DNA of 64,000 bases from a virus: IMG/VR virus record IMGVR_UViG_3300021960_000027, positions 53,938 to 117,937 of that record. One strand, 5' to 3'. Under the pieces are notes generated by a model. The model did not search any database. It was not told the origin of the DNA and worked only from the letters and a program-made list of their open reading frames with translations. Both the position numbers and the translations under genes were made by a program. Numbering within the stretch: the stretch's first letter is position 1; every line of letters starts with the position of its first letter. This document shows, piece by piece, positions 1 through 64,000 of this stretch.

Positions 1-77
1 AACTCAACTGATTCAATGCCTTCGCATTTTGCGAGCGCAGGGAATCCTTCACGATTTAATTTATTAAGGAGAAGCAG

Positions 78-653
78 ATGGTTTCAGAATCACAGAAGTT
101 GCCCGGACCGAGATGTAGAGAAATGGTTGACGGTGGTGTCATGTCATTTCCATGCATGCTTGACTTGGGGCACATCGGTCCGCACGAAGCAGTAGAGGTT
201 CCTGCGTCTGGTCGTCGTCGTCAACTTTGGCTTGAGGAAAATGTTTCTGAGCAACAGCCTGTTACCGCAAGTCAGCCACAACAAGAACAGCCCAGCCCTA
301 GCGTGGACATTAGGCAAACGGTCATTGACCTTTTAATGAATGATGCCAGTGTTCGTCAGATTGCTAACGGAGAGGTTTCTCATCCAGTATTAGACATTGA
401 ACACATCAACCCACAGCATGTGCGAGAGCAGGCTGTTATGGCTGTCCTCAATAATCGTGACATTAATGCTCTTCCCGCGGCAGTTTCTTCTTGGGCGACG
501 GGTATGGTTTCAATGACCAGCCTGTCTGCACTTTGGATGATGGCTCAAGAACACTTTAACAATGGGCACTCCGCTGTTGTTTTAACAAAGGAATTCGTTG
601 AGAAACTTGTTCCAACACAAATTCGACCAGCACAAACTGACGAAGGAGAATAG
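78..653 (+). CDS. hypothetical phage protein
   Basis: 191 aa ORF with a strong SD (TAAGGAG) upstream; stop overlaps the next start. Confidence 0.75.
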   Translation: MVSESQKLPGPRCREMVDGGVMSFPCMLDLGHIGPHEAVEVPASGRRRQLWLEENVSEQQPVTASQPQQEQPSPSVDIRQTVIDLLMNDASVRQIANGEVSHPVLDIEHINPQHVREQAVMAVLNNRDINALPAAVSSWATGMVSMTSLSALWMMAQEHFNNGHSAVVLTKEFVEKLVPTQIRPAQTDEGE

Positions 654-1069
654 TGAAACATTTCGACACTGAGTTAGACAAACAGTCTTCTTACCGCCGA
701 GTAGTCGAAAAGGAAATCGTTCAGGAAGTAAAGCCTGAGCCACAGATCAAGCAGTCGTTTGTTGCGCCCAGCAACTCTCAGACTCACGCCTTTTCTCATC
801 CAGAACAATGGAACTGGGAGCAATTACGAGATTACGTTGTGTCTCAAATTGAGCAACGCTTTGGGGCATTCCCACGCGATCCGGTAGTAGAAGCATCAAT
901 CTTTCGCTCGTTCTACGGTCGGTGGAAAGAGAAGTCTGGATTAATTGCTGTCGCGGCATTTGAGGCGCATGGTGGGTACTGGCGTTCTGCCCCGATTACG
1001 GTCAGTCGTTTTACCAAGGGTTCGGATGATTATTTTGCAAGCATCATTGCATCTAATATTTCCGCATGA
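653..1069 (+). CDS. hypothetical protein, possibly replication initiation associated
   Basis: 138 aa, GGAG SD, ATGA-coupled to the DnaC-like gene; function inferred from position only. Confidence 0.7.
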   Translation: MKHFDTELDKQSSYRRVVEKEIVQEVKPEPQIKQSFVAPSNSQTHAFSHPEQWNWEQLRDYVVSQIEQRFGAFPRDPVVEASIFRSFYGRWKEKSGLIAVAAFEAHGGYWRSAPITVSRFTKGSDDYFASIIASNISA

Positions 1070-1893
1070 AACTCGCCCCAATCCCAAATCATATTTTGCT
1101 TCCGTCCGACATGGAGTTGAGACGGATTGCATCCAACCATCGGATTCGCAAACCAGATGACTGCAACACTTGTGGTGGTCAAAAGACTTTTAGGTTTTGG
1201 AACGAGGACAGAACAGAGGTAGTTGACTGGGAGTGCAACTGTGAGGATCAGTATGTTCTCTCGTTGTATTTTGCAAGCCGTGGAATTTCACGCAGGGACT
1301 CCACCATTTCTTGGGCTGACATGACCGCAGTTCCACAGGCAGGCATTGAGTGGCGAAACAATTATCTTTCAAATGCAGATGCATTTGTTCGCAATGGGTT
1401 TGGTGCCGTTCTTATTGGTGATTCAGGAACTGGTAAGTCTGCATTGGTCAATCTCATGCTTCGCACACTGATGTTTTTGGGTTACGACGGATATTTCATC
1501 CGTTACCCATCTTTGCTTGATTGGGTTCCAAAGACTTGGCAAGACGAAGAGGAAGACCACTTCTTTAAGAAGAGGGTTGTTAACGCTGGGGTACTGGTCA
1601 TTGATGACTTGGGTGGCTCAACTTCAGAGATTGAAAAATCTTCCCCAGAGTTTGCGATGAGGGCAATCGACAACATCCTTCGACATCGACTGAGCGTAGG
1701 CGTTCCAACATTTATTACATCTCGCCTATCGGCAGACAAATTGCAGTCAATCTTTGGTCAATCAATCAGCGACCTCATTCGTGAATCATCCAGCATTCAT
1801 GTTCTTCGTGGAGAATCTTTCCGTCATACGGGGGAAGACCCGTTTGTTGCTGATATCAAGAATGGTATGTCTCGTCCGGTGGTGTTTGGCTGA
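1066..1893 (+). CDS. dnaC: DnaC/IstB-like AAA+ ATPase (helicase loader)
   Basis: N-terminal CxxC...CxC, Walker A GDSGTGKS, Walker B VLVIDDLG, TFITS and GESFR motifs; directly before DnaB. Confidence 0.85.
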   Translation: MKLAPIPNHILLPSDMELRRIASNHRIRKPDDCNTCGGQKTFRFWNEDRTEVVDWECNCEDQYVLSLYFASRGISRRDSTISWADMTAVPQAGIEWRNNYLSNADAFVRNGFGAVLIGDSGTGKSALVNLMLRTLMFLGYDGYFIRYPSLLDWVPKTWQDEEEDHFFKKRVVNAGVLVIDDLGGSTSEIEKSSPEFAMRAIDNILRHRLSVGVPTFITSRLSADKLQSIFGQSISDLIRESSSIHVLRGESFRHTGEDPFVADIKNGMSRPVVFG

Positions 1894-3200
1894 TGGCAAC
1901 ACAGTTTGAAAAGGTTTTCATTCAGCACCTCACAATTTCAGAGTCGATGGAAAAGATTGTGGAGATGGGCGTTTCTCCAGATGTCTTTGTCGATCACGAA
2001 CTCAAGGCAATCTATTCATTCGCACTCCAGTATTGGCATCAGGATCATTCGGGTGGTATTGCTCCATCTTCGGATGCGCTTAAGACTCACTTTTCAAACG
2101 TGCTGGCAGAACATGAGATTGACGTTGAGTACGAGCCAGAAGATTCTTTGGAATGGTCGGTAGAGGCTCTTCGTGGTTCCTTTATTGACCGTCAGTGGCA
2201 GTCATGGGTGCGTGATTTTGCTACCGACATGTCAGGGGCAGACATTCTTGATAAGCCTGAGGTTTTGACCGAAGCACTTGACCGTCTTATGGGAATCCAA
2301 ACTGCAATGTCACGAAAGACAGAGCAGGTTGACATCAGGGACGGCATGTCAGACAGGCTTACCGAGTATCTTCGTCGTGAGTCCGAGCGGGGCAACAATG
2401 TCATTCGTGGCATTCCGTTTGGAATGGAGCAAATCGATTCTCATACAAACGGTATTCTTCCCGGGGAACTCTGTGTTCTCGCGGCCGGTCCGAAAACGGG
2501 TAAATCGTTTATGCTCCTTTATTCAGCACTTCAGTATTGGAAGGCTGGTGGAGTGCCAGTCCTTTTTACGCTGGAGAACTCTGTTGAGATGACGCAAGAC
2601 AGACTTGCCTGCATGGAACTCGGTATTGACGCTCGTCGTTGGAATCGGGGAGAGTGCGACGAAGGTGAACTTCAAAGAATTCGTGAGTGGACAGATGCTC
2701 TTCGCAACTCTGAGCGACCATTTTGGATTCTCCAGCCTGAACCCGGAAAGCGGACGGTCGACTTAATGATTCGTCAAGCGCGAGTTCTTGGCAACGCCGC
2801 GTTCATTGACCAGTTAACTTTTGTTGATGTACCAAAAGCAAGCGACCGCTCTCCACGGCACATTCAAATCAGAGACATTCTCCATGACTTAAAGTCGATT
2901 ATTTCTTCCGGCAATCGGATTCCATGTTTGATGGCTCATCAGATTAATCGTGAGGGAGTAAAGTCAGCAGAGCGAAGTGGGAAGTTGGAGATGTACCACT
3001 TGGCAGAATCTGCTGAGGTTGAAAGAACTGCCGACTGGGTTTTTGGACTTTGGCAGGGCGAAGGTTTGAGGCAGGCTGGTCGTGCGTACATCCAGATGCT
3101 CGCGGCTCGTCGTGAAGACCTTGTCGATTGGGAAGCAGTTTGGCGACCTCATATTGGTCAGATTGCAGTCCGTGGTCAAGTAGATTTGAGTCAGGTGTGA
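1893..3200 (+). CDS. dnaB: DnaB-like replicative helicase
   Basis: Walker A AGPKTGKS, FTLE, FIDQL, AHQINR and LAESAEVERTAD superfamily-4 helicase motifs. Confidence 0.92.
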   Translation: MATQFEKVFIQHLTISESMEKIVEMGVSPDVFVDHELKAIYSFALQYWHQDHSGGIAPSSDALKTHFSNVLAEHEIDVEYEPEDSLEWSVEALRGSFIDRQWQSWVRDFATDMSGADILDKPEVLTEALDRLMGIQTAMSRKTEQVDIRDGMSDRLTEYLRRESERGNNVIRGIPFGMEQIDSHTNGILPGELCVLAAGPKTGKSFMLLYSALQYWKAGGVPVLFTLENSVEMTQDRLACMELGIDARRWNRGECDEGELQRIREWTDALRNSERPFWILQPEPGKRTVDLMIRQARVLGNAAFIDQLTFVDVPKASDRSPRHIQIRDILHDLKSIISSGNRIPCLMAHQINREGVKSAERSGKLEMYHLAESAEVERTADWVFGLWQGEGLRQAGRAYIQMLAARREDLVDWEAVWRPHIGQIAVRGQVDLSQV

Positions 3201-4219
3201 CAAAATTTTCTCACCTTCCTGATGGCGAGAAAAAGCGTCTTTGTCTTGACCTGTTGCGTGAATTCAACGCAAAGAACATTCGTGAATCGGGGGATGAGTT
3301 AATCCATTCCTGCCCTCTTCCATTTGGCATGCACAGAAATGGCGACTCAAATCCTTCAGCATCTTTGAACTGGCAGAAGTTGGTTTTTAATTGCTTGGGG
3401 TGCGGTGGCAAAGGCTCATTGCTTTGGTTCATCTCTGTCATGCGCGGAGAATCCACCGAAGATGCAAGGGGATGGCTTTCCGCTCAAACTGGAGTAAACG
3501 GTGTTCAGGAAATCGGTGCGTTGATGCAGTTTCTTGATTCATTGAATGAGTCACCAGAGGATAACGACCACTCGGTCATGCCACGCTACAACTCTCGTAT
3601 CTTGGAACCGTGGCTGGTAGATCACCCATACTTTTCTTTTCGTCGCCTGCCAGAACAAAATGTCAAAGATTCAAAAATTGGATTCGATGGCTCAAGCATT
3701 ATCATTCCACACTTCTGGAATGAAGAACTTGTCGGCTGGCAAGCAAGACGGTTAGTCAAGGATCAGGGACCGAAATACAAATCGACCCCAGAGTTTCCAC
3801 GGGATAGAACCCTCTACAACTACAATCGCCATTCAGACACAGTGGTGGTAGTTGAGTCTCCAATGTCTGTCATCTCTAAGCGTCACCTCTTCCACCTAGA
3901 GGCAACATTTGGCGCGGCAGTTACCACTAAACAATGTTCTCTTATTGCAAACCATCGTGGTCGTATCATTTTGTTTTTTGATAACGATGAGGCTGGGTGG
4001 AAGGCAACAACAACGGTTGGTGATTGGCTTTGCCAACGTCAAAGCAACGTGTTCGCCGTTGACAATCCGTACGCGGCTGACCCTGCCGACATGAGCGATG
4101 AGATGTTCAGCAGACTTGTATCAAATAATGTAGTACCGTATGTTCTTTGGAGCAGACCGTCTAGTTTAAAGGAAATGGATGATGGGTTTCACCAAGTACA
4201 GTCGTGGGAAAGTTCTTAA
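3197..4219 (+). CDS. dnaG: DNA primase (Zn finger + TOPRIM)
   Basis: CPLP...H...NPS...FNCLGC Zn finger, PKYK, VVVES and FFDND TOPRIM motifs. Start moved to GTG 3197, which overlaps the dnaB stop (GTGA). Confidence 0.9.
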   Translation: MTKFSHLPDGEKKRLCLDLLREFNAKNIRESGDELIHSCPLPFGMHRNGDSNPSASLNWQKLVFNCLGCGGKGSLLWFISVMRGESTEDARGWLSAQTGVNGVQEIGALMQFLDSLNESPEDNDHSVMPRYNSRILEPWLVDHPYFSFRRLPEQNVKDSKIGFDGSSIIIPHFWNEELVGWQARRLVKDQGPKYKSTPEFPRDRTLYNYNRHSDTVVVVESPMSVISKRHLFHLEATFGAAVTTKQCSLIANHRGRIILFFDNDEAGWKATTTVGDWLCQRQSNVFAVDNPYAADPADMSDEMFSRLVSNNVVPYVLWSRPSSLKEMDDGFHQVQSWESS

Positions 4220-4322
4220 GAGTGAAGAAGAGTCATCCGATAATCAGGATGGATCAGAGCAAGAAAGACTCCAAAGAATTACGGATGCTCTTGCAGAAGA
4301 CGGCGAGGGAACAGAGGACTGA
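4179..4322 (+). CDS. small acidic hypothetical protein (47 aa), not in ORF track
   Basis: Hand translation MMGFTKYSRGKVLKSEEESS...GEGTED; AAGGA upstream; overlaps the low-confidence 5' end of ORF 4204. Confidence 0.45.
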   Translation: MMGFTKYSRGKVLKSEEESSDNQDGSEQERLQRITDALAEDGEGTED

Positions 4323-4947
4323 ACCCTTTCTTGTTGGGGGTCAGCCTTGGTTTTCTTCCAGCACGGCAATAGAGCCACTTAGATTTGTTTGGGACACCAA
4401 TAGTTTTTACAGAAGGCTCGGTGTTGAACCCAGCGCAACCCGTGGAGAAATTGGCGTTGCGTATCGCGATAATCCGAATCGTGATGATCCCTACCTAACC
4501 CATATTGCCAAGACTCTAGTGGATAAGAGCATTAGGCTTCGTTACGACTGGACTCCACTCGGTATGTTCTGGTCAGACGACCAACGGCTACAGCACGCCA
4601 TTGAAGAGGCGTTAGATCAATCCGGTGAAATTGAATCCCTAGAAACTGCAACGGGGAGTGTTGCAGAGTGGGGATTTTTTGTTCTTGGAGTTGACCAAAA
4701 CGATGTAGAAGAGTCTTCTGTTGTGCTGTGGCGAAGTGCGGTTATTGAGTGCCTATCTCAATTTACTGAAGTACCTCCCATCGCTGTTGGGATTGGGGCG
4801 CAGTCTTCCGACCCGACCATTGTGGTTCGGGACAAAAGAATTATTTTTTTCGCACCGAACATGCTTGACGATCAACTTGCTAGGCAGTATGCTTCAGATG
4901 TCGTCGCGTCCGTGGCGACAATCGACCCAGAATCACTCACCAATTAG
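4204..4947 (+). CDS. DnaJ-like (J-domain) protein, HPD motif absent; true start probably further downstream
   Basis: FYRRLGVEPSATRGEIGVAY...LVDKSIRLRYD matches J-domain helices. Confidence 0.7.
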   Translation: MGKFLRVKKSHPIIRMDQSKKDSKELRMLLQKTAREQRTEPFLVGGQPWFSSSTAIEPLRFVWDTNSFYRRLGVEPSATRGEIGVAYRDNPNRDDPYLTHIAKTLVDKSIRLRYDWTPLGMFWSDDQRLQHAIEEALDQSGEIESLETATGSVAEWGFFVLGVDQNDVEESSVVLWRSAVIECLSQFTEVPPIAVGIGAQSSDPTIVVRDKRIIFFAPNMLDDQLARQYASDVVASVATIDPESLTN

Positions 4948-4959
4948 GGGGTAACCAAC

Positions 4960-13802: not shown

Positions 13803-14153
13803 ATGGCAAGGATGAGGTTTGGGGTTCACAAGGCACTTGAGGAAGAGGCGAATGCAATTATTGCAGAATCTCTTAAAGGTGTAACTTCTCACGCGGCAAA
13901 GTCCGACATTCTAACTCCTTGGAAAGAGCAGGAGCGGAGAAGGCGAGAGGTTTATGTAAAGGGTGGTTCGCCCGATCCTGCCATCCGAAAAGGAATGTTT
14001 AAAAAAGCGGCTAATCGAACTCACCCACAGTTGAATTCACGCGAGGGAATTGCGCCACCATTGCAGGGCGCACCTTCTTCTCTCTCTGCTTGGGTTTCAG
14101 AAAACGGATGGTCAGGACCGGATGCTCCACCGGGAGAAGATTTAGGTGACTGA
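13803..14153 (+). CDS. hypothetical protein
   Basis: 116 aa, GGAGG SD. Confidence 0.75.
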   Translation: MARMRFGVHKALEEEANAIIAESLKGVTSHAAKSDILTPWKEQERRRREVYVKGGSPDPAIRKGMFKKAANRTHPQLNSREGIAPPLQGAPSSLSAWVSENGWSGPDAPPGEDLGD

Positions 14154-14799
14154 ATACTCAGATATTGATTATTCATTTTCTACTTCTCCATCTCCCATTG
14201 AAGTTTCTCTTGGTGGCAGAAAATACGCTTTTACATCCCACAAGAAATGCAAGGTTTGTAACTGCGATTTGCGGTTTGAGATTGATGAAAAGTTGTTGCT
14301 CGGTCGTTCGTACCGTTCGATACTTCGTTCTCTTCCAGAGGATTACCAAGAGGATGGCTCTTCGGTAATAACGATTGACAACTTAAAAAACCATGCCAAG
14401 AATCATCTGCCCTCAGATGTTGCGGTAAGTCGGGCGATAATTGAACAGCATGCTGAGGATGTTGGTCGTGCGATTGATTCTGCCGAAGGAACATTGGTTG
14501 ATGCATACTCCGTAGCCAATGAAGTTATGAGACTTGGCTTTGAGCGGATTGTTATGGGGGAAATAAAGGTTGGCCTTGACCACACTCTTGTAGCCGCAAA
14601 AATGGTTTCTGACATGGAAGACAAGGCCGGTCAAGGAGTTGACACCGCCGCGTTTGGTCAAATGGTGGTTTTGCTCCTTCAGCATGTTAGAAATATCATG
14701 TCGCAAGAGCAGTTTCAACTACTTTCATCTTCTTTTAAAAACGACCCGCTGTTTGCCTCATTGGAGGCACAAACTGCCCCCAAGGAAATATCTTCTTAG
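14146..14799 (+). CDS. putative terminase small subunit-like / Zn-HTH protein
   Basis: CKVC...IDEKLLLGRSY...HAKNH followed by helices; upstream of terL. Function inferred. Confidence 0.45.
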   Translation: MTEYSDIDYSFSTSPSPIEVSLGGRKYAFTSHKKCKVCNCDLRFEIDEKLLLGRSYRSILRSLPEDYQEDGSSVITIDNLKNHAKNHLPSDVAVSRAIIEQHAEDVGRAIDSAEGTLVDAYSVANEVMRLGFERIVMGEIKVGLDHTLVAAKMVSDMEDKAGQGVDTAAFGQMVVLLLQHVRNIMSQEQFQLLSSSFKNDPLFASLEAQTAPKEISS

Positions 14800-16391: not shown

Positions 16392-18392
16392 ATGCCAAAA
16401 CCAGCCCCGATTAGCACCGAAAAAGCAATTAATGGTTTTCTTGGTGAGTCATTGCCCAATGACATCATTGAGTTTGTCATCAGTGACCGCTGGCTCAACC
16501 GGCCAAATTTGTATCCCCGCCAAGCCACTCTTTTAAAATTGATCTTTTTGCAGGAAGAGTTGTTTACTGAATATGATTTAGATGTTTTAGGTGAGTGGGG
16601 AGAGGGCTTTCGTCTCACCGAAATGCCACCAGATGAATCGACTTGGAGGTTTTCTGGCGACTGGGGTATTCAACCTGATTCGATTGACAGGTTGAGGTAT
16701 CTCAGAGACGTTGAGGGTAGAAAGTGGTTTAGAACTATCTTGAACGTTTCTGGTCGACGTTCAGGCAAGGGTCACTTAGGTGCTATTTGTGGTGCTTACG
16801 TTTTGTGGAACTACATTGCAAAGGGCGACCCACGATGGGACTTTGGTGTTGACCAAGACAAGCGTTTGTCGTGTCAAGTTTTTGCTGGCAAGAAAGATCA
16901 GGCAAAGGCTAACCAATGGAGAGACTTAGTAAATGTCATCCTTGGTGCGCCATGCTTTGCTCCGTATGTCAATACTCCACTGACAGAGTCTCTTACTGTC
17001 ATGGCTCCCGTTGACCACATCCGAATCGACAATCTTCGTCGTCGGGGAATTAAAACAGACATGGATTTATCTACGTTTGAAATTGTTCCTAAAGAAGCAA
17101 CCACAATGGCCGCGCGTGGTCCGTCATCTTTCATGCAATTTTACGATGAAATGGCGCACATGGTTGGAACAACTGGCGGTTCTCGTTCCGCTGGGGAAGT
17201 ATGGGAATCTGCTACTCCAGCACTTGACCAGTTCAAAAAAGAAGCATTCATTTATTGTGGCTCTTCACCTTGGGAGATGACGGGAAAGTTTTACGAGTTG
17301 TGTCAGCAAGCGTTGACGATTGAAGCAGATACGCAAAAGGCGGTTTATCCAGAAAGCCTGATTATCCAGTTGGCTTCTTGGGACATTTACGAAGATTGGG
17401 AAAGGACTCTCCATCGCTTCCCTCTTTCTCCTGCGTACATGAAAAACAGGAGCGAAAGACAAGACGTTGAAATTCAGGAAAGGTTTTTTCTTCCTCTAAA
17501 GGGTTCTATTCAGGAATACGACTCAGCCATGCAACGTCTTGAGCGTGCAAATCCAGACACTTTCCGAGTTGAGCGTCGTGCAAAATGGGCTACTGCCCTA
17601 GATGCGTATCTGCCGGAGGAACATATTAGAAAGATGTTTGGTCCGTGGAAGGGTCAAACATTAACGATGCAGTCTTCAGGATTGCCGACGACTGACTACG
17701 CGATGCATGGCGACCCCGGCAAAACTGGGTCAAACTTTGGGTTTGCAGTTGCCCACAAAGAGTGGGTTGAAGGTTCTGAAATTCCACATGTTGTGTTTGA
17801 CTTCATCATCGGTTGGTCACCCGGAGATTTTGCAAGTCTTGAAATGGACTACATTGCCATTGAAGATGAAATCAAAGCGTTAGTGGATGGCTTTCTTCCC
17901 ACAGACGTTTCTTTTGACCAATGGAACAGCATCGGGCTAATTCAAAGATTACAAAAGCACGCAAACCGAAACTTCAAGCCATGTACGGTTTACGAAAGAA
18001 CTGCTACTGCTTCAACTAACTGGCGCACGGCAGAAACCTTCAAAGCGGCACTAAGTCTTGGCCTGCTCCATGCTCCCTATTATGAGTTGGCAGAATTGGA
18101 ATGCCTGTTTCTCAGGAAACTTGCAGGTGACAAAGTTGACCACCCTTCAACTGGACCGTGTACAACCAAGGACGTTTACGACGCAATGAGTATCGTTGTG
18201 TACAAACTGATTGGTGATGAAATTGCATCGTTCCTTGGTCAAGAGTTTTCTGATTTGAAAATTTCAGGAACAATGCCCGGACCGCAATCTCAAGCGTCTA
18301 TTGAAAATCAATTTACCGCATTCAGTCAGGGAGTATCTAGGCAGGGTTCTGGTCGGGGTGCAGTATCTGGCGGTCGCTTCTTACGGCAGTGA
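16392..18392 (+). CDS. terL: terminase large subunit
   Basis: GRRSGKG Walker A, DQAK, FYDE Walker B, SSP, nuclease motifs HGDPG...FDQWNS...VDHP...KDVYDA. Confidence 0.9.
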   Translation: MPKPAPISTEKAINGFLGESLPNDIIEFVISDRWLNRPNLYPRQATLLKLIFLQEELFTEYDLDVLGEWGEGFRLTEMPPDESTWRFSGDWGIQPDSIDRLRYLRDVEGRKWFRTILNVSGRRSGKGHLGAICGAYVLWNYIAKGDPRWDFGVDQDKRLSCQVFAGKKDQAKANQWRDLVNVILGAPCFAPYVNTPLTESLTVMAPVDHIRIDNLRRRGIKTDMDLSTFEIVPKEATTMAARGPSSFMQFYDEMAHMVGTTGGSRSAGEVWESATPALDQFKKEAFIYCGSSPWEMTGKFYELCQQALTIEADTQKAVYPESLIIQLASWDIYEDWERTLHRFPLSPAYMKNRSERQDVEIQERFFLPLKGSIQEYDSAMQRLERANPDTFRVERRAKWATALDAYLPEEHIRKMFGPWKGQTLTMQSSGLPTTDYAMHGDPGKTGSNFGFAVAHKEWVEGSEIPHVVFDFIIGWSPGDFASLEMDYIAIEDEIKALVDGFLPTDVSFDQWNSIGLIQRLQKHANRNFKPCTVYERTATASTNWRTAETFKAALSLGLLHAPYYELAELECLFLRKLAGDKVDHPSTGPCTTKDVYDAMSIVVYKLIGDEIASFLGQEFSDLKISGTMPGPQSQASIENQFTAFSQGVSRQGSGRGAVSGGRFLRQ

Positions 18393-21553: not shown

Positions 21554-24500
21554 ATGACGGCTATTTACTCAAATCTCCGTGCAGGCACGATCACCGATAA
21601 CCCACTCGGTTCAACTGATACAACAATTAACTCTGCTGAATTTGCAGACCTTCCAGTTGTTGCTTCCCCCGATTATCTATGGCTAACCCTTGATCCTGAG
21701 TCGGCAGTTTCTACTCCAGAAATTGTTAAGGTCACAGCCCACTCTTCTGGGGCAACCTCTGTAACAGTTGTTCGTGGCGAGCAAACATCTCTGGGTGGTA
21801 ACGCATCTCGCTCGCATAGTCAAGATACTCGCTGGGTAGCATCGTGGACTGCCGAAGACGGCGAGTTGATGCCACACCGTGTTCTTACAGCCAAGGGCGA
21901 CATTCTCGCGGCAACGGGGGCGAACACGATTGATCGCTTGGGAGTTGGAACCGATGGCTATTTTCTAAAAGCCGATTCAGGAGAATCGACTGGACTCGTC
22001 TGGGGTCAGGTCGATTTCTCTACTGCCAACCTTGATGACCTCGGTGATGTCACGATCACCAGCGCACAGGCAGGTCAGTTTGTTCAGTGGAATGGCACTG
22101 CATGGGTTAATGCGGTCATGCCGTCTGGGGAACCGATTGGTCACCAAGACAAAACTGAAAGCACTATTTCTTTCTCAAATTCCACGCGTGTCTTTACGAT
22201 TGCGCCAGTTTCTTCATCCCATGTTGTTTGGTGCAAGGGCGTTAAGCACACCAAAACCTCTTCTGAAACTGTAACCATTCCCGATACAACGGGTTTGTAC
22301 TACGTCTACTACAACGAGTCCGGCACGCTGGGCTACAAAACAACCTATTTTGTCTGGGACACTGACACCCCAACTGCCTACATTTACTGGAACGCAACAA
22401 CTGGTGAGGCAGAGTTTTTTGCAGACGAACGTCATGGGATAACTCTTGATTGGCAGACTCACGAATATCTTCACCGCACACGGGGTGCAGTTATTGCGAG
22501 TGGGTTTGGGGCATCAAATTATGTGACAGATGGCAACGGCGGTTCTGACGGACACGCTCAGTTAGATATTGCCAACGGTACGTTTTTTGATGAAGACCTT
22601 CAGGTAGACATCACCCATTCCGCAACTCCCACAGCAAACACTTGGGAGCAGGTTCTTCAGGGCGCGGCAGAAATTCCCGTCATGTATCAGGTGGGAACAG
22701 AATGGCAACTTGATACTGCTACTGAATTCCCAATTAAGGCTGGCACTGCGCTCCCTCGCTACAACTCTGTTTCAGGCTCAACGTGGTCGCTCACTGATTT
22801 AGGTAATTCTAAGTTTGGTGTTTCGTGGATTGTTGCAACCAACAATCTTAATGAACCTGTTATCGCCATCATGGGGCAGGGCGAATACAACAACATTGGT
22901 GAGGCAGAAGCAACGACTTGGGAAGAGTTAGACCTAACTGGTTTTCCTGTCTTTGAATTTCGTGTTTTGTACAAAATCGCTTTTCAGGTTGCATCGGGAT
23001 ACACCAACACAATCAAAGCCGCGATTCGTGGGGTCTACGATTTACGGCGAACAACAGTTGCTGGAGATTCAATCCCCACTATTCCAGTCGCTGACCACGG
23101 TTCCTTAACTGGTCTTGCGGATGACGATCACACTCAGTATCTCAATGAATCTCGCCATGATGCGTTAGACCACAGCACTGCGCTTGGTTCGGCGGTCGTC
23201 AGTGACCTAAGTGATGTTTCATCTACCTCACCCACATCCGGTCAGATTCTTAAGTGGAGTGGCTCGGACTGGAGTCCGTCTGACATAACACTTGGCACGG
23301 AAACAAGTGGTGATTACGTCGAATCTTTGACGGCAGGAACGGGCGTTTCAGTCGGCACCGCAACTGGAGAAGGTTCTACCCCAACCATTGCGATTGGTCA
23401 GTCGGTAGGTACTACTGACGATGTCACATTTAACACCGTCACTGGAACAAACGGGATCATTACGCTTACCACTTCAGGTGCGCCAACATCTTCGCTTTCT
23501 GATGGTGCCATCGCCATTGATACATCAAACAACATTTTGTACATCAGGTCTGGTGGAGCATGGATTGAGTCATCTGGCGGTGGAGCAAGTGTTTCTGTTT
23601 CAGATACCGCTCCATCTTCTCCAGATGTAGGTGACCTGTGGTTTGAGTCGGATACTGGAGACGTATTCGTTTACTACGACTCAGCGTGGATTGACATTGG
23701 CGGTACGTCTGTTGCGAACATTGCCACCTCCGATACCGCCCCCTCTTCTCCAGCCAATGGAGACATCTGGTTTGAGACTGATACCGCTAAGACATTCGTA
23801 TGGTATGACGATGGTTCTAGTCAGCAATGGGTAGAGATTGGCGCGGCAAGTTCGTCTGCTACTGGTTCTTCTGGTGCGATTCAGTTTGCTAACGGTAACA
23901 GTGCGTTCTCCAGCGACGGTGCGAACCTGTTCTGGGACGACACGAACAACCGACTCGGTGTAGGCACTAACAGCCCTGCTGTTGCGTTGGATGTTGTAGG
24001 TACTACTGATACTGATTATTTGACTGTTGGGGGCGAGAACGTCACCCCGTATACGGGTAAGCGCAACCTTCTTATCAATGGTGCGATGCAGGTTTACCAG
24101 CGCGCATCTTCTGGTGATGTCCTTGCCTCTGAGGGTTACAGGTGTGCTGACCGTTGGAAGTCTTACCGAACTGTAAATGCGGCTGGCACCCTTTCTGTAA
24201 ACACCACTGATGCCCCCGAAGGGTTCAACAACTCTTTGAACTACGCTTGCACCTCAGCAGAAGCAACCCCCACTAACGAAACTTTTGTGTCACAAGTTCT
24301 TGAGGGTCAAGATGTTCAGCATGTTGGCTACGGGAAATCATGGTGCAAGCAGGTAACCGTTTCGTTCTGGGTCAAATCAAATGTGACAGGGACATTCAAT
24401 GTCTGGTTCTTCCGCTGGGACGGAACTCGCCACATTGGTCGTTCCTACACGATCAACTCTGCTGACACTTGGGAATACAAGACCGTGCTTGTTCCAGCAG

Positions 24501-51134: not shown

Positions 51135-53234
51135 ATGAGTTTTGCCGACGAAGCCGAGTCGGTAAGAAGGCTTTTTTCGACTGCCGGTCACATCGATCCT
51201 TCTGACCCAAATCGTGATGTAATCTCCCAAATGGGGTTGAACCGCTCTGTCAACATGAGGAAGAGCGGTGTTGCTAATTCTATTTCCCTTGCAACTGGTC
51301 GCCCGACAGACCCGATGTTTTACTGGCGTAATGCCAACCTTCCGTACAACATTTGGGAAAAAGATGAGTTGAGCAAGGTTCGCTCCTTTTGCCGAATGCT
51401 GTATTTGCTTCATCCAGTAATTGCGTCTGCGATTGACATCTTCTCAAAGTATCCGCTGGTTGGCATGGAGATTCTCTCTCCAAAAGACGACAAGATTACA
51501 GACTTTTACAACGAACTATTTTTCAATGAACTTGATTACGAAGAGTTCCTTGTTGACGTTGGTCGTGAGTATTGGACTGCTGGAGAAGCGTGGGCGTTTG
51601 GAACGTTCAATGAGTTGCTTGGCGTTTGGGAGTCTGATGAGTTGCTCCAGCCAGATGACATCAAGGTTGTCCGATCCCCATTCTTGCGTGAGCCACGCTA
51701 TGAGATGCGTCTTCCCCAGCACATTCGGGATATCATTCGTGATCGTAAACCGGAGTGGGAATACAAGCAGTTAATTACTGCCTACCCTGAGATGGCATCA
51801 CTTGCCTCTCTTGGTGAGTTGACTGATGAAGACGACCCTCGCGGTTGGATGCCGGTCAGCAACACTCTTCTGTATCACTTGAAGTTTAAGGGCGACACGT
51901 TCCATGATCGTGGTGTTCCTATTTTGATGCGAGCATTCCGTTCAGTAATGCAGGAGGAAATGCTGAATGCCGCGCAGGATGCGATTGCCTCACGTTTGTA
52001 CACTCCACTGATTCTTGCAAAACTGGGTGCTTCAGCAGGCGACTTGGGTACAAATGCTCCTTGGATTCCGTCGCAGGCAGACTTGGACGCTTTTAACGAA
52101 TCTCTCAACGCCGCGCTCGCGGCTGATTTCCGAGTAATGACTCACCATTTTGCGGTCAACATGAGCAACGTTTTTGGTCGTGAATCAATGCCTAATCTAA
52201 ACGGAGATTTTGAACGAATTACTGAGCGCATTCTTCAGACGTTTGGTATGTCAAAGACAATGTTGTCCGGTGCAAGTGGTGGTCAAACTTACGCGGCAGA
52301 CGCGTTGAATAGAGATTTGCTTTCACAGTTGCTGGTTACATATCAAAAACGAATTGCACGTTTCTTCAAAAAGCGCGCTGAGGTTGTTGCTGAGGCTCAA
52401 GGTCACTACGACTTTGAGTTGAAGGGTGGTCGACCTATCCCAATTATGGAAGAAGTAATTGAGGTAGACGAAGAAACAGGTAATCAGCGCATTGTTGAAC
52501 AGCCGAAATTACTTGTTCCAGATTTGAAAATTCGTTACATCAATATGCGAGATCAAGACTCGTATCGCCAATTCTTGGAAGCCTTGCGTGCAACTGGTGT
52601 TCCGATTTCTCAGCGTACAAGAATGGTTAATGTGCCAATTAATTTGGACGAAGAAGCAGAGTCTGTTAAGACAGAGCAGGTTACTCAAGCCGTACTTTCG
52701 CAAGAGGCAAGGAAAGAAACTTACCTTGAACTTCGTCGTCGTGGCCTGCCCATTCCTCAAGATTTGATTGATGACTTTATGCCAAGGGTTGACGATTCTA
52801 AATCTGCAACTACTCCAGAAATTCTTCCATCGATTGGCCGAAATGAGCCTGCTCCTACTGTTGGTTTGGTGCCAACAGAAGAGGACTTGGCTTCGGCTGG
52901 TACGGAGGCAACTGGTCCAATTCCAGATGTAGATATGTCGGATGTTGTAATTAAGAATCTCCCACGCAACCGAATGACTCGTCCACGAAACATTGAGGAA
53001 CAGGGCAATACGCCCTATGAAAGTCACGAACAGCGTGCGGGTATGCCAAGGGCATCTTCATTAGACCCTTCTGTTCAAGTAGACCCTATTCTGGTTGATG
53101 GGGAAGAAGTGGCACGAACAGTGATGTCTGCTCCAAATCACATTGGTATGCGGGCGGTTGCTTCCAAAGAATCTTTTTATCTGTATCAGGAGGAAGACGA
53201 AGTGGATGAAGAAAGCGATGAAGCCTCTGATTGA
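51135..53234 (+). CDS. portal protein
   Basis: 699 aa; LY..HPVIASAIDIFSKYP, GEAW, RGVPILMRAFR, TPLILAKLG, recalled from large actinophage portals. Confidence 0.8.
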   Translation: MSFADEAESVRRLFSTAGHIDPSDPNRDVISQMGLNRSVNMRKSGVANSISLATGRPTDPMFYWRNANLPYNIWEKDELSKVRSFCRMLYLLHPVIASAIDIFSKYPLVGMEILSPKDDKITDFYNELFFNELDYEEFLVDVGREYWTAGEAWAFGTFNELLGVWESDELLQPDDIKVVRSPFLREPRYEMRLPQHIRDIIRDRKPEWEYKQLITAYPEMASLASLGELTDEDDPRGWMPVSNTLLYHLKFKGDTFHDRGVPILMRAFRSVMQEEMLNAAQDAIASRLYTPLILAKLGASAGDLGTNAPWIPSQADLDAFNESLNAALAADFRVMTHHFAVNMSNVFGRESMPNLNGDFERITERILQTFGMSKTMLSGASGGQTYAADALNRDLLSQLLVTYQKRIARFFKKRAEVVAEAQGHYDFELKGGRPIPIMEEVIEVDEETGNQRIVEQPKLLVPDLKIRYINMRDQDSYRQFLEALRATGVPISQRTRMVNVPINLDEEAESVKTEQVTQAVLSQEARKETYLELRRRGLPIPQDLIDDFMPRVDDSKSATTPEILPSIGRNEPAPTVGLVPTEEDLASAGTEATGPIPDVDMSDVVIKNLPRNRMTRPRNIEEQGNTPYESHEQRAGMPRASSLDPSVQVDPILVDGEEVARTVMSAPNHIGMRAVASKESFYLYQEEDEVDEESDEASD

Positions 53235-58474: not shown

Positions 58475-58858
58475 ATGGCAAGAACAGACGCAGGCAGAGA
58501 CTGGCAGGCTCGCATCATGGGAGACACAGGCTCAGATGGTACTGGTGACTATGCATCAGCGACCTACATTGGGCTGTCCGCAAATACAGACTCCCCAGTC
58601 GCGTCCAATACGACGTTGCCGGGAGAGATCACATCTGGAACACTCGCTCGGACTCAGGCTGTCTATGCACACACCAATGGGACATCTTCCTACACGTTGA
58701 CCAAGACTTTCACTAGCGACCAGACCGTCAACATTGCAAAGACCGGCGTGTTCAATGCATTGACTGGTGGGACATTGGTGTTTGAAACGTTGCTTGGCTC
58801 AACGGCAAACCTCAAGTCGGGTGACACAGTTCAAATCGTGTTCACTGGAACCCTCTGA
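58475..58858 (+). CDS. virion structural protein
   Basis: MARTDAG...YIGLS...GVFNA..GG.L...GDT.Q pattern; start moved to ATG 58475 with GGGAG SD. Confidence 0.75.
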   Translation: MARTDAGRDWQARIMGDTGSDGTGDYASATYIGLSANTDSPVASNTTLPGEITSGTLARTQAVYAHTNGTSSYTLTKTFTSDQTVNIAKTGVFNALTGGTLVFETLLGSTANLKSGDTVQIVFTGTL

Positions 58859-58880
58859 GCATTAAACAACGTCTCGCCTC

Positions 58881-59570: not shown

Positions 59571-59579
59571 CAAAGATGC

Positions 59580-59609
59580 TTGCGTTGGGTAACACCCGTG
59601 GGATACAAT
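59580..59609 (+). promoter_or_regulatory. SigA-type promoter for the small early gene cluster
   Basis: TTGCGT-N18-TACAAT, followed by an AAGGAG SD. Confidence 0.65.
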
Positions 59610-59651
59610 CGATTGAGTAACCCATAACCACCGTTCTCAAGGAGAGAAGAA

Positions 59652-59894
59652 ATGGCATTTATGCAATACGTTTGGATTACCTGCGACACAGGTTGCGGTG
59701 CGAAATTTAACACTCATACAAACAGTGACGGAATGAGTCGTACACGAAGCCCTCGCGACAATCGCCATGAAGCGACACAAATCGGGTGGACACATTCACG
59801 CAAGTTCGGTGACCGTTGCCCAATGTGTTCAAGAACCATTCGCGCAGTCAAGCAGTGGAACGAATCCAAAGCAAAGCAATCAGTTCAAGAATAG
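59652..59894 (+). CDS. small Zn-ribbon protein
   Basis: ITCDTGCG...GW...DRCPMC. Confidence 0.75.
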   Translation: MAFMQYVWITCDTGCGAKFNTHTNSDGMSRTRSPRDNRHEATQIGWTHSRKFGDRCPMCSRTIRAVKQWNESKAKQSVQE

Positions 59895-59916
59895 AAATTA
59901 TTAATGGAGGCGCAAC

Positions 59917-60078
59917 ATGAGCAGGACTACTGCTGAGTGGAGAAATATTTACAAGGCTCGCAATGAGCGTCGTCGTTCGTTCAGTAAGTCTGAGCGCGCA
60001 TTCAACAAGAAGTTCGGCAGAGCATTGTCTCAGCGCAAGTGGGACAAAAACAAGAATCGTCGTACTGACGAAGACTAA
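59917..60078 (+). CDS. very basic 53-aa protein, not in ORF track
   Basis: GGAGG SD; MSRTTAEWRNIYKARNERRRSFSKSERAFNKKFGR. Confidence 0.65.
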   Translation: MSRTTAEWRNIYKARNERRRSFSKSERAFNKKFGRALSQRKWDKNKNRRTDED

Positions 60079-60087
60079 TATCTGGGC

Positions 60088-60279
60088 ATGGACACTTCAC
60101 ACGACAATGCTACTGACATAGTCTGTTCAGGCTCAGGAACATCTGGCTTTGTTAACCTTTCATTGGGAGAGAATGGTAAATCGTTCCGCTACTACAGATG
60201 CAGTGTGTGCGGTGCTTACCTGTCCTCTACTCCGTTGAAGGAACACCAGCCGATTGCGAGAAACAGTGGCAATCGGTAG
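60088..60279 (+). CDS. small Zn-binding protein
   Basis: CSGSG...CSVCG...H. Confidence 0.55.
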   Translation: MDTSHDNATDIVCSGSGTSGFVNLSLGENGKSFRYYRCSVCGAYLSSTPLKEHQPIARNSGNR

Positions 60280-60568
60280 CGAAGGTGAGATCGGTGTAGA
60301 GTTCCGCACCGGCACCAAAGACATCAACTACCCGTGGGTTGTCAACGGTGTACGACATCAGTTGATGCACGGGGATAGCAAGGTTGTGTACATCTGTGGT
60401 CGACCATCAAATCTGTATTCAAGGTTTGAGTGGGAGTGCCACCGAGGGTGCTGTGTCAGCAAACCTGACCCCAACGACGAGATCACTGATGAGATTCCAA
60501 TCGTTGGTTTAAGCATCACGGGGACAGACGGAAAAAGTTATCTAGTTCAGAAGGGGAGTGGACAGTGA
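60254..60568 (+). CDS. hypothetical protein
   Basis: 104 aa, AAGGA upstream. Confidence 0.55.
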   Translation: MRETVAIGSEGEIGVEFRTGTKDINYPWVVNGVRHQLMHGDSKVVYICGRPSNLYSRFEWECHRGCCVSKPDPNDEITDEIPIVGLSITGTDGKSYLVQKGSGQ

Positions 60569-60827
60569 TGGGTTGCTTGGTTGCCATTGTGGTGAATACC
60601 TTCCTTGCTCTTGGCTTTGCATTTCTGATTGCGACAGCCATGCGAGGGAAGAGGTGACATCTTTAATACTTGACTTGGTCAGCAGACTTCGATATTGTTC
60701 TATCTATCAGAAAGACATAGGGCATCTCTTGGAAGAGGCCGCGAGTGAAATCGAACGACTCAATGAGATCATTGAGCAATCGAATTCGGGAGGGAAACAG
60801 CATGAAGACAATGCAGTACAAAGTTAA
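60558..60827 (+). CDS. hypothetical protein
   Basis: DLVSRLR...EAASEIERL motif common in small phage proteins. Confidence 0.65.
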   Translation: MDSDGLLGCHCGEYLPCSWLCISDCDSHAREEVTSLILDLVSRLRYCSIYQKDIGHLLEEAASEIERLNEIIEQSNSGGKQHEDNAVQS

Positions 60828-60987
60828 GGAGTTGCCATCGTGCGACTTCTGTGCAGGTGATACAACTGCCAAGTATCGGGGCAAGGTCATCTTTCCCGAC
60901 AAGTGGGCGAACATGTGCAAGGAACATTTTGAGGATTACGGGGTTCGCTCCGGCAAGGGCAAAGCGAAAGAGTTAATTCTCAAGTGA
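60802..60987 (+). CDS. small Zn-finger protein
   Basis: CDFC...AKY...WANMCKEH; GGAGG SD before ATG 60802. Confidence 0.7.
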   Translation: MKTMQYKVKELPSCDFCAGDTTAKYRGKVIFPDKWANMCKEHFEDYGVRSGKGKAKELILK

Positions 60988-60998
60988 GTGTCAATCAA

Positions 60999-61151
60999 AT
61001 GATTGAAATTGTTTGTGATGCTTGCGGAGAGGCAGAGAGTGAGTGGGGAACCACCGCAACGTCTTTTCGTAAGTCACTTCAGGACTATGGGTGGAAGTCA
61101 ACATCAAACACTGACTTGTGCCCACACTGCATTAAGGAGGCAGGGAAATGA
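60999..61151 (+). CDS. small Zn-ribbon protein (50 aa), not in ORF track
   Basis: MIEIVCDACG...GW...DLCPHC; ATGA overlap with the next gene. Confidence 0.7.
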   Translation: MIEIVCDACGEAESEWGTTATSFRKSLQDYGWKSTSNTDLCPHCIKEAGK

Positions 61152-61381
61152 GTAGGCGTTTTAGGCTTTTACTGGCGACATTCGTAGCGACTGCGTTTGT
61201 CTATTTCTTTTGGACGATGCCTTGGTTGCCAAGGGATTATGTCCAGACTGTTAACCAAACACCGGCAATGAAGTTCGCTTCGATTGCTTGTTGGGTGTAC
61301 GTTTGGGCAGTGTCACTTCGTCTGCTCCACATCTTCAACACTGGTCATCGGGTGTTGAGCATTCGGGAAAGCCGGTCATAA
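61148..61381 (+). CDS. small membrane protein
   Basis: Two hydrophobic segments; AAGGAGG SD. Confidence 0.7.
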   Translation: MSRRFRLLLATFVATAFVYFFWTMPWLPRDYVQTVNQTPAMKFASIACWVYVWAVSLRLLHIFNTGHRVLSIRESRS

Positions 61382-61390
61382 ACAATGGTC

Positions 61391-61473
61391 GTGGTCGGGA
61401 AGACTGGAGTCACGGGAGAGCCGTGGACACCGCTCATTAGGTTGTCGCGGGTCATCGAACACTTCCCGACCAC
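61391..61473 (+). ncRNA. candidate structured RNA / cis-regulatory element
   Basis: Perfect 12-bp stem GTGGTCGGGAAG/CTTCCCGACCAC enclosing two inner hairpins; intergenic. Confidence 0.45.
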
Positions 61474-61500
61474 TCAACTTTCAAAGCGACGGGTCGGATT

Positions 61501-61593
61501 ATGAAGAGCGTCATTATGATGTCGGGCTTTATTGGCTTTGTTGTTATCATGCTGGCTGTTCTCCTTGACTCAATGTTCAACAGCAAGAAGTAG
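61501..61593 (+). CDS. 30-aa membrane peptide, not in ORF track
   Basis: MKSVIMMSGFIGFVVIMLAVLLDSMFNSKK; fills the gap before 61596. Confidence 0.5.
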   Translation: MKSVIMMSGFIGFVVIMLAVLLDSMFNSKK

Positions 61594-61595
61594 AG

Positions 61596-61934
61596 ATGTC
61601 AGACAAATACACACTGGATACCGAACTACTAGCGCGCTCCATCGACATGTTTGTTGAGCGAGCGATTGAAGACGGCGACTCAATAGAGAACATCTTGCAA
61701 ACCATCCGTGACGATGCGTGGAGTACAAGGTATGTTGTCGCCGCGGTTCTTGGTTGCTATCAAAGCATGATGACTGAAACTGTCGATTGGTCTACGATTG
61801 GTGGCTTGACGTTGTTTGAGCAACTGTGGACATCAATATCAAAGCGGATTCACGATATTGAATCCATGATTATGGAGGGTATGCCAAGTGTTGACACCGA
61901 AGCAGTCTCGGAAACTCAGGGAGGAAGTTCTTGA
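61596..61934 (+). CDS. hypothetical protein
   Basis: 112 aa acidic. Confidence 0.65.
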   Translation: MSDKYTLDTELLARSIDMFVERAIEDGDSIENILQTIRDDAWSTRYVVAAVLGCYQSMMTETVDWSTIGGLTLFEQLWTSISKRIHDIESMIMEGMPSVDTEAVSETQGGSS

Positions 61935-62202
61935 GGAAGCAAAATCTGCGGTAACTGTTGACCGCAACCGTGATTACTCTGAGCCAGAGAACAACTTTGA
62001 GAACATCGCTCGGTTGTGGACGGCTTACATTCCTGACTATCAGTTCACTCGCAAAGATGTAGCAGTCATGTTCATGCTGACCAAGATTGCCCGTTCGTAT
62101 GCGACACCAACGCTGAAGGATCATTGGGTGGATATTGCTGGCTATGCCGCGTGCGCCCAGCCCTGTGCAGTTGTTGACTCTGAAGAACCACTAGGTAAGT
62201 AA
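61888..62202 (+). CDS. DUF6378-like protein
   Basis: LEEA...DRNRDY..PENNF..IA.LW...KIAR...DHWVDIAGYAAC. Confidence 0.8.
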   Translation: MLTPKQSRKLREEVLEEAKSAVTVDRNRDYSEPENNFENIARLWTAYIPDYQFTRKDVAVMFMLTKIARSYATPTLKDHWVDIAGYAACAQPCAVVDSEEPLGK

Positions 62203-62230
62203 ACCTACTTAATTGCACTTGGAGGTGCGT

Positions 62231-63151
62231 GTGTCTCAGTTTGAGATTCTTGTTGGTGATGCCATTGAATCAATGAAGGGGCTGGAAGATCAGTCAGTCA
62301 GGTGTGTCATCACCTCTCCCCCGTATTGGGGTCTTCGTGATTACGGGCATGATGGGCAGTTGGGGTTGGAGCAGACTCCAGAAGAATATGTCGAAGCAAT
62401 GGTGGAAGTGTTTCGTGAGGTGCGTCGTGTTCTTTCCGACGACGGCACTATCTGGTTGAACATTGGTGACTCATACATCGGCGGTGGTCGCGGGGGGCAG
62501 TCATCTAAGAAGCGTTCAGATAACTGGCAACCCACCTATTCTCTTCAGAACCACGTTCCCAAGAACTACAAGGCAAAAGACCTTGCTGGGATTCCGTGGA
62601 GGCTGGCATTCGCCCTGCAAGCAGACGGGTGGTATCTGAGGCAAGACATTATTTGGCATAAGCCAAACACGATGCCTGAGCCGGTGAAGGACAGGTGCGT
62701 GAAGTCTCACGAATACGTTTTCTTATTGAGCAAGAAACCAAAGTATTACTTTGACTACTTGGCGATTAAGGAGCCTGCTGTTGGAGAGAGGTGGGGTGGC
62801 AACAAGCCAATCAACTTAGACAACAGCAAGGATGTAGATAACCAGTTCTCTGGTCTTACCCGTGAACGACAGATGCTGTACGAGACTCGTAACAAGCGTT
62901 CCGTGTGGTCTATCATTACTCGCCCATTCAAGGGCGCACACTTTGCCGTCATGCCAGAAGAGTTGGTAACCCCATGTGTGCTGGCTGGTTCGGAAGAGGG
63001 AGACTTGATTCTTGATCCATTCGCTGGCTCAGGAACAGTTGGTGTTGTTGCTCTCCGACATGGGAGAAGGTTCGTTGGGGTTGAGTTAAACCCTGATTAT
63101 GCAGAGTTGGCGAATGAGCGGATTCGTTCTGTTCACCCAACATTATTTTAG
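62231..63151 (+). CDS. beta-class DNA amino-methyltransferase (SPPY; N4-cytosine likely)
   Basis: VITSPPY motif [24 protein letters not shown] motif I; GTG 62231 after GGAGG. Confidence 0.93.
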
Positions 63152-63163
63152 AAGGAGAATTTA

Positions 63164-63655
63164 GTGCCAGTTCAAGTTGGAATACTTGTCAAGTTGAAGC
63201 CCGGTGTAAGGCGGGGGAGGAATGGTGAGGTACTGAGTGATGGTAACGACATGTTCGATTACGCACTCAGTGTCCTCAAGCGTACTTCTGTTGTAGCAGA
63301 CGAGGATTACTCTCCAGAGTGGATTAAGGACTGCATCGAATTGATGGGGAGCGGTGAATGGCTTGATCGCCGCGATGTCCGTGAGTGCGAAGATGCGATG
63401 ATTTCACTAAGAATGTTGCACAAGAAATTTATGAGCGACATGAAGATCGAATGGTCAGAGCATGAAACTATCTTCAGTAGGAACAGGACTCAGCACGACA
63501 AGACAATGAACAGCATTGTTGGAATGTTGAAGACTGGCTCACGGTTCGCTTCGGAGACTGATAGCCCGTATGGACTGAATGCGTATTTCGACAAGGAAGC
63601 CGCGAAAGCATCCAAGTGGAAAGACGAAGAGCAGGTCTTTGAATACGATGACTGA
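63164..63655 (+). CDS. hypothetical protein
   Basis: 163 aa, AAGGAG SD. Confidence 0.7.
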   Translation: MPVQVGILVKLKPGVRRGRNGEVLSDGNDMFDYALSVLKRTSVVADEDYSPEWIKDCIELMGSGEWLDRRDVRECEDAMISLRMLHKKFMSDMKIEWSEHETIFSRNRTQHDKTMNSIVGMLKTGSRFASETDSPYGLNAYFDKEAAKASKWKDEEQVFEYDD

Positions 63656-64000
63656 GATTTACGCGTTTGGCACAAGGTCGAATAACGCACAACTTGTTGC
63701 TGACCTAGTCGAACTCGGTTACATCGATCTTTCTCAACCAATCCTTGATCCGACGTATGGGTACGGAAGATGGTGGAAGGATGTTCAGCCAGAAGCATTG
63801 ACTGGGTGTGACATTCAGCCTGAACTTTCTCCGTACGGTCGCTCAGTAGATTTCACTGACATGCCATTTGAGGACGGGGAGTTTGATGCAGTGCTGTTTG
63901 ACCCACCGTACAAGTTGAATGGTTCGTCGCATGGCTTTGCTAACGATGCGTCGTATGGCGTGGGCAATAAAAAGCCAGTGAGCATTCAGAACAGATACCA
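63648..64000 (+). CDS. second DNA methyltransferase (DPPY; N6-adenine likely), truncated by window end, not in ORF track
   Basis: Hand translation gives ILDPTYGYG (SAM motif I) and FDAVLFDPPY (motif IV). Confidence 0.8.
   Translation, partial: MTEIYAFGTRSNNAQLVADLVELGYIDLSQPILDPTYGYGRWWKDVQPEALTGCDIQPELSPYGRSVDFTDMPFEDGEFDAVLFDPPYKLNGSSHGFANDASYGVGNKKPVSIQNRY

Follow-up and report, generated by a model that had tools for sequence, protein, structure and literature searches.

How does a phage encode two adjacent alanines when the codon pair for them necessarily contains a pentamer, GCNGC, that its genome selects against? The question is raised by a stretch of 64,000 nucleotides (hereafter the window) that corresponds to positions 53,938-117,937, the second half, of the IMG/VR record IMGVR_UViG_3300021960_000027, a complete viral record of 117,937 bp with an exact terminal repeat of 127 bp. 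Over the whole window (1..64000, no strand assigned) GCWGC (GCAGC or GCTGC) does not occur, and 77 of the 81 GCSGC sites (45 GCGGC and 36 GCCGC) are overlapped by CGCG, that is, they are written as CGCGGC or GCCGCG, a form that we call shielded. A preliminary description of the window had already claimed that GCAGC and GCTGC were missing and that GCNGC survived almost only under CGCG. Both claims are borne out by counting, the pattern being stronger than first stated; moreover, every example position listed there shows CGCGGC or GCCGCG. The reading that we consider best, and to which we give about an even chance, is that methylation of the overlapping CGCG would shield those GCSGC sites that the phage cannot avoid.

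Genome-wide, GCWGC is likewise absent and GCSGC occurs 146 times, 137 times in the shielded form and nine times unshielded. Expectations were drawn from two null models of 300 shuffles each, one exchanging synonymous codons with the protein and the codon usage of each gene kept, the other permuting codon order; both were run inside 134 plus-strand open reading frames (ORFs; our own simple calls), with 11 small minus-strand ORFs left as they are. The synonymous-codon shuffle predicts 144.9 ± 9.6 GCWGC, 93.9 ± 8.7 unshielded GCSGC and 34.9 ± 5.4 shielded GCSGC for the whole genome (221.5, 122.2 and 42.0, respectively, in the codon-order shuffle). The shielded fraction is 0.94, against a shuffle mean of 0.27 and a highest value among the 300 shuffles of 0.39. 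The 127-bp terminal repeat holds no GCWGC or GCSGC site, which rules out double counting. A codon-preserving shuffle had been proposed in the preliminary description, and it places GCWGC far below and CGCG overlap far above expectation (in round figures, 0 vs 145 ± 10 and 137 vs 35 ± 5). CGCGGC is the most over-represented hexamer relative to the shuffles (z of about 20), and together with CGGWCCG (z of about 10; see below) it is by far the most over-represented word. GCNGC is under very strong negative selection in this genome.

The avoidance extends well beyond GCNGC. AGCT, CCWGG, CTCGA/TCGAG and GGSCC are each absent from the whole genome (for AGCT, 0 vs 332 expected); 29 of the 64 palindromic hexamers are missing and 37 stand at or below 0.2 of expectation, the classes RGATCY, YACGTR, RGCGCY and GRCGYC being purged whole. 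With GCWGC at zero, unshielded GCSGC at 9 vs 94 and AGCT at zero, sites fall below the number expected when proteins and codon usage are both kept; thus, the genome avoids restriction sites, and it is from this avoidance that we infer restriction as the selecting agent. For CTCGA/TCGAG, about 50-118 copies are expected in the window and none is present, TCGA itself occurring 315 times; we know of no enzyme that reads the non-palindromic CTCGA. Also missing or nearly so are several asymmetric words of the kind that type IIS enzymes recognise, with 35-66 copies of each expected: GGCGGA, CACGAG and CACGTC do not occur, and GAGACC and CTCCTC occur once each.

The cause of the surviving GCSGC sites lies in the genetic code. 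An Ala-Ala pair (GCN-GCN) always contains GCNGC, and synonymous changes cannot remove the site; in-frame Ala-Ala accounts for 132 of the 146 GCSGC sites. These 132 pairs are spelled GCC-GCG in 59 cases and GCG-GCN after a C in 66, with seven exceptions; GCA or GCT is never the first codon of the pair (0/132), though the two make up 62% of all Ala codons. Context prints and the codon analysis give examples of both forms, CGCGGC in the codons xxC GCG GCA at 952..957 and GCCGCG as GCC-GCG at 52110..52115, both on the plus strand. When GCG-GCN follows a residue whose codon can end in C, the preceding base is C in 66 of 67 pairs, the genome-wide share of NNC being 0.27; after Lys, Glu, Gln, Met or Trp, which cannot end in C, GCC-GCG is used in 15 of 20 pairs, and all ten Ala-Ala-Ala runs are spelled GCC-GCG-GCN. 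The spelling rule for Ala-Ala spans three codons. Moreover, the shielded sites are symmetric between strands (72 plus, 65 minus), and this symmetry and the three-codon span together point to a constraint at the level of DNA. Ala-Ala pairs are themselves scarcer than the frequency of Ala predicts (132 vs 228), and in this one proteome Gly-Pro, Ala-Ala and Pro-Gly rank among the six dipeptides with the strongest depletion (0.51, 0.58 and 0.63 of expectation, respectively), which suggests that selection on DNA has changed protein sequence.

These features bear on the possibility that restriction is not involved at all, and that a codon-pair or translational preference, or positive selection for CGCGGC as a motif, has filled the genome with this word. 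The rank of CGCGGC among over-represented hexamers is what such an explanation would lead one to expect. However, 125 of the 137 copies are Ala-Ala pairs while Ala-Ala is depleted, and a selected motif would fill the other frames too; the rule extends to the last base of the codon before the pair and is indifferent to strand, as expected of DNA rather than of translation; and dozens of known restriction sites have disappeared altogether from the same genome. We therefore consider an origin outside restriction highly improbable, and the specific candidate of CGCGGC as a positively selected signal is rejected by the Ala-Ala codon analysis and the strand symmetry.

What exactly is tolerated is defined by the forms that are missing. 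A flanking C does not rescue GCWGC, since CGCWGC/GCWGCG occurs 0 times vs 73.5 ± 8 in shuffles, and CGCWGCG 0 times vs 10.1; nor does it rescue GCSGC when it lies on the other strand's side of the site (CGCCGCH/DGCGGCG, 0 vs 27.0 ± 4.8). Positions beyond CGCGGC take all four bases, with no further constraint from the flanks. Because forms with only the flanking C are absent and the outer positions are free, the tolerated element is CGCG overlapping GCSGC by four bases. Protection by the flank alone is rejected by the counts for CGCWGC and CGCCGCH, and a longer shield motif by the occurrence of all four bases outside CGCGGC. With 137 of 146 sites shielded where shuffling gives a fraction of 0.27, and with the flank-only alternatives failing, the exemption is specific to CGCG. 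The preliminary description had placed its exceptions near 14007, 14593, 18045 and 24179, and the site count returns exactly these four and no others in the window: GCGGC at 14007..14011 (AAAGCGGCT), GCCGC at 14593..14597 (GTAGCCGCA), and GCGGC at 18045..18049 (AAAGCGGCA) and at 24179..24183 (AATGCGGCT), all on the plus strand and none overlapped by CGCG.

How might an overlapping CGCG confer an exemption? The genome would have been purged of many restriction sites, GCWGC and GCSGC included, and the unavoidable Ala-Ala sites would have been kept only as C|GCG-GCN or GCC-GCG, under CGCG. If the phage DNA is methylated at CGCG, whose inner C is the first C of GCGGC, methylation of this shared cytosine would put a methyl group on at least one strand of the site, where it blocks cleavage of the Fnu4HI type. 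If the methylase responsible is one that the whole host lineage has kept, each burst of phage DNA would carry the mark, and sites overlapped by CGCG would become a dependable refuge from nucleases that vary between strains. Such shielding by overlap is chemically plausible because, in the passages of the M.BatI paper that concern these sites (PMC8936443), GCNGC is stated to escape Fnu4HI once it is hemimethylated, and an overlapping BstUI site shares the first C of GCGGC, this cytosine being used there to block BstUI. The palindromic hexamers give an independent hint that CGCG is special. The four NCGCGN palindromes all survive, with a total of 72 vs 84.2 expected, while the twelve palindromes whose core is CCGG, GCGC or GGCC together occur 6 times vs 198 expected; the difference between the CGCG-core hexamers and these twelve (Fisher p = 0.0005), and that between them and all 64 hexamers (p = 0.012), were both examined post hoc.

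Several points weigh against shielding by CGCG methylation. Counted over all contexts, CGCG comes close to the value in shuffles (290 vs 320 ± 15), but where it does not overlap GCSGC it numbers 161 vs 287 ± 15, a ratio of 0.56; the genome thus tolerates CGCG without leaving it untouched. The nine unshielded GCSGC sites persist where not one GCWGC does, and two enzymes of unequal strength fit this better than a single GCNGC enzyme. None of 248 other phage loci of at least 8 kb carries the same signature, defined by a shielded fraction of GCSGC of at least 0.55 and a CGGWCCG fraction of at least 0.35, neither of which is reached. Finally, the shield is deduced from sequence alone and its provider is hypothetical.

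Contigs that avoid one class only also favour separate GCWGC and GCSGC enzymes, L103 having 1 GCWGC vs 32 expected beside 67 GCSGC, and L078 having 9 GCSGC vs 39 expected beside 68 GCWGC. This separation lends weight to an explanation that dispenses with methylation, in which the nucleases themselves would spare the tolerated forms: for example, a GCWGC enzyme could be joined by an asymmetric or extended-specificity reader of GCCGCH/DGCGGC and by a GGWCC reader that needs flanks other than C. The survival of unshielded GCSGC beside zero GCWGC fits it as well, and GCSGC is not a true palindrome, which makes an asymmetric reader conceivable; CglI and NgoAVII read GCCGC. However, recognition of GCCGCH, or of GGWCC only without a C flank, matches no specificity known to us, and the escape of all four CGCG-core hexamers also counts against it. 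In favour of CGCG shielding, pressure from CGCG-cutting enzymes is real elsewhere, since CGCG is purged from contigs that are related to the phage or share its methylase (L053, 0 vs 130 expected; L051, 1 vs 137; L217, 0 vs 46).

A second dipeptide provides both a further objection to CGCG shielding and the means to weigh the alternatives. Gly-Pro (GGN-CCN) always creates GGNCC. In the whole genome GGSCC occurs 0 times vs 81 expected from shuffles and GGWCC 66 times vs 140 (in the window, 0 and 38, the latter including 19 CGGWCCG). In-frame Gly-Pro accounts for 64 of the 66 GGWCC sites, and GGW is used in all 64 Gly-Pro pairs; CCG encodes the Pro in 51 of these 64, though it makes up 20.5% of Pro codons overall. 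The tolerated form is CGGWCCG, with Gly-Pro written as C|GGW-CCG, as on the plus strand at 104..110; further examples lie at 176-182 and 2486-2492. Sites with C flanks on both sides (CGGWCCG) number 35 vs 7.6 ± 2.7, those with one such flank 26 vs 52.2, and those with none 5 vs 80.4. GGWCC abutting CGCG (GGWCCGCG/CGCGGWCC) occurs once vs 3.7 expected; a CGCG mark therefore does not cover every conditional exemption, GGWCC being channelled into CGGWCCG instead. This channelling is not explained by CGCG methylation, and either another mark or some other principle is needed. Pro-Gly (CCN-GGN), by comparison, is always written CCS-GGN, because CCWGG is absent, and follows no flank rule. The graded survival of GGWCC resembles protection conferred strand by strand, which counts against nucleases that spare the tolerated forms by intrinsic specificity, and we regard that explanation as unlikely.

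A broader mark directed at CpG (CG or SCG), whether from host or phage, could shield CGCGGC and CGGWCCG alike. It would unify the two cases, the flanks placing the outer cytosine of the site within a CpG in both tolerated forms, and it would account for the half-protected GGWCCG intermediate (26 vs 52), as expected of a short mark applied to each strand separately. Against it, 15 CpG-containing palindromic hexamers are avoided, including all NCCGGN, AGCGCT, GGCGCC and TGCGCA, and the presence of CpG does not predict survival, the observed-to-expected ratio exceeding 0.4 in 8 of 23 hexamers with CpG and in 14 of 41 without. Moreover, DGCGGCG is absent (0 vs 27), though its CpG methyl groups would equal those of CGCGGCH, and so is CGCWGCG (0 vs 10). 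A general CpG mark thus seems quite unlikely to us.

Where would a CGCG mark come from? The preliminary description had named the phage's own SPPY methylase as a possible source, and this part of its proposal is not supported, although very strong selection against GCNGC, with survivors overlapped by CGCG, is supported. The gene (62213..63151, plus strand) encodes a DNA methyltransferase of 312 amino acids that matches PF01555 (N6_N4_Mtase) over profile positions 1-221 (E = 1e-53), with SPPY at residue 35 and a S-adenosylmethionine-binding motif (F.G.G) near residue 270. The full-length PF01555 match and the position of SPPY N-terminal to the S-adenosylmethionine-binding motif place it among the beta-class N4/N6 enzymes, and its relatives by sequence in PDB are 2ZIE, CcrM and N4-cytosine methylases. 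The gene is solitary, lies close to one end of the genome and is the sole recognisable DNA methylase gene (60 of 145 ORF proteins were scanned with Pfam, the rest being mostly small); other DNA-modification genes were not found among the 60 proteins so scanned, 10 of them also with PHROGs, and no match to PF00145, the family of C5 methylases, was found in the genome.

That the phage enzyme itself methylates CGCG and provides the shield gains some credit from its being the only candidate encoded in the genome and from its SPPY motif, which is typical of N4-cytosine enzymes, and from the presence of N4-cytosine methylases among its closest relatives of known structure. Its variable region (target recognition, motifs VIII-X), however, is conserved in, and defines, a very large and widespread subfamily that is largely metagenomic. 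Ten IMG/VR contigs share at least 65% identity over 54 amino acids of this region (L079, L242-L246, L250, L275, L276 and L300), and these carriers hold 14 CGCG vs 143 expected, seven of the ten having none. Since such carriers would lack the substrate of a CGCG methylase, and with one would have no need to avoid CGCG, the phage enzyme is unlikely to be CGCG-specific. The carriers, mostly of about 37% G+C, are equally purged of GCGC and CCGG, with GATC and TGCA at or above expectation. Most of the subfamily departs from the phage enzyme in a second variable loop (about residues 85-125), so that a changed specificity is possible. On balance, the phage methylase probably does not target CGCG, which, it being the only methylase in the genome, is a further point against CGCG shielding, and we think it very unlikely to be the source of the shield.

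A more plausible provider than the phage enzyme would be a methylase shared throughout the host lineage, and for this the identity of the host matters. The genome is predicted to be that of a lytic-type phage of about 118 kb, and its host is most likely an actinobacterium, since the large terminase is about 33% identical to terminases of large Mycobacterium, Rhodococcus and Gordonia phages and 9 of its 14 relatives from prokaryote genome collections are in Actinomycetota records. The Rpf-type transglycosylase domain that the phage encodes also speaks for such a host. According to the sections of PMC8919816 that deal with this motif, CGCG is the third most frequent methylated motif in metagenome-assembled genomes (MAGs) of marine prokaryotes and is methylated in all MAGs of Acidimicrobiia, an actinobacterial class, in that study, most of the methylases being orphans; CGCG methylation is seen in Caudovirales viral MAGs as well (PMC8919816 and, in the portion concerned, PMC9516812). 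The likeness to our phage lies in such lineage-wide orphan methylation on the one hand and in terminase kin that are mostly from Actinomycetota on the other; the evidence there comes from the methylomes of MAGs, and the link of the phage to Acidimicrobiia is a suggestion only. Among 401 genomes from the class to which one Acidimicrobiales MAG belongs, which may not be the host class of the phage, PF09504 (RE_Bsp6I) has a single match and PF09565 (RE_NgoFVII) only weak partial matches, inside proteins of about 1000 amino acids. Possibly, host-wide marks, CGCG and a second one covering GGWCCG, serve as a borrowed shield, Ala-Ala and Gly-Pro being written only where they are covered; we put this forward tentatively, as a proposal that may well not hold.

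Restriction-site avoidance and the blocking of overlapping sites by methylation are each textbook matters. As in other phages, short palindromes are depleted here relative to a codon-preserving expectation; the difference is that avoidance becomes conditional on the flanks at sites forced by the protein, Ala-Ala and Gly-Pro. The cytosine that would be shared, the first C of GCGGC, is the same as in the blocking of Fnu4HI by overlapping CpG or CGCG methylation described in the relevant part of PMC8936443, but in the phage the methylation is a proposed one, and its mark might be N4-methylcytosine or 5-methylcytosine. Protective methyltransferases of phages offer another comparison. The solitary methylase gene recalls the GGCC/GCNGC enzymes of Bacillus phages and M.BatI (GCDGC), but those belong to the C5-cytosine methylases, and their modification of GCNGC itself makes avoidance unnecessary. 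The phage studied here, in contrast, has no PF00145 match, avoids GCNGC and encodes a beta-class enzyme that appears not to be directed at CGCG. Within the literature searched, we found no prior description of flank-conditional avoidance forced by dipeptides; what appears to be new is an avoidance that depends on the flanks exactly at the sites that the genetic code makes unavoidable. If our reading is correct, bare sequence would predict methylated motifs in uncultured phages and their hosts, and would reveal the epigenetic state of a phage together with the restriction repertoire of hosts that have not been cultured. Restriction pressure would then dictate three consecutive codons and deplete specific dipeptides. 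The reading would also yield sharp predictions about CGCG and CGGWCCG methylation, which can be tested at little cost.

Within this phage lineage, avoidance of sites seems to be a common trait, and the sets of avoided sites differ among the terminase relatives (L051, L053, L033/L034, L066, L072 and L217): AGCT is absent and CCWGG occurs once in L051, CCWGG is absent from L072, and AGCT from L066. A search of IMG/VR with the terminase as a single protein returned no relatives, and 8 kb of the genome had no megablast match among cultured phages. Searches with profiles in IMG/VR, in metagenomes and in genome collections yielded terminase relatives of at most 61% identity, mostly in sequences of 59-70% G+C, and the signature was present in none of them. 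The nearest terminase relatives, from other sources, show 76% and 73% identity, the former being encoded on a contig of 124 kb. Streptomyces assemblies also contain terminase relatives of 45-49% identity, on contigs of about 150-156 kb (L322, L324, L330 and L333), one of which is labelled a plasmid; these contigs may be phage-plasmids or co-purified phage genomes.

The window has a G+C content of 47.6% and no tRNA genes; the plus strand carries nearly all genes (134 of 145 ORF calls). Besides the large terminase, the genes encode a DnaE-like polymerase, a DnaB-like helicase, a primase, RecA and RuvC, as well as baseplate and tail proteins, a VanY/peptidoglycan-binding lysin and an Rpf-type transglycosylase domain. 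An ORF of 503 amino acids at window positions 30067-31578 matches a PHROG family annotated as tryptophan halogenase (E = 9e-99), an unusual auxiliary gene in a phage related to actinophages.

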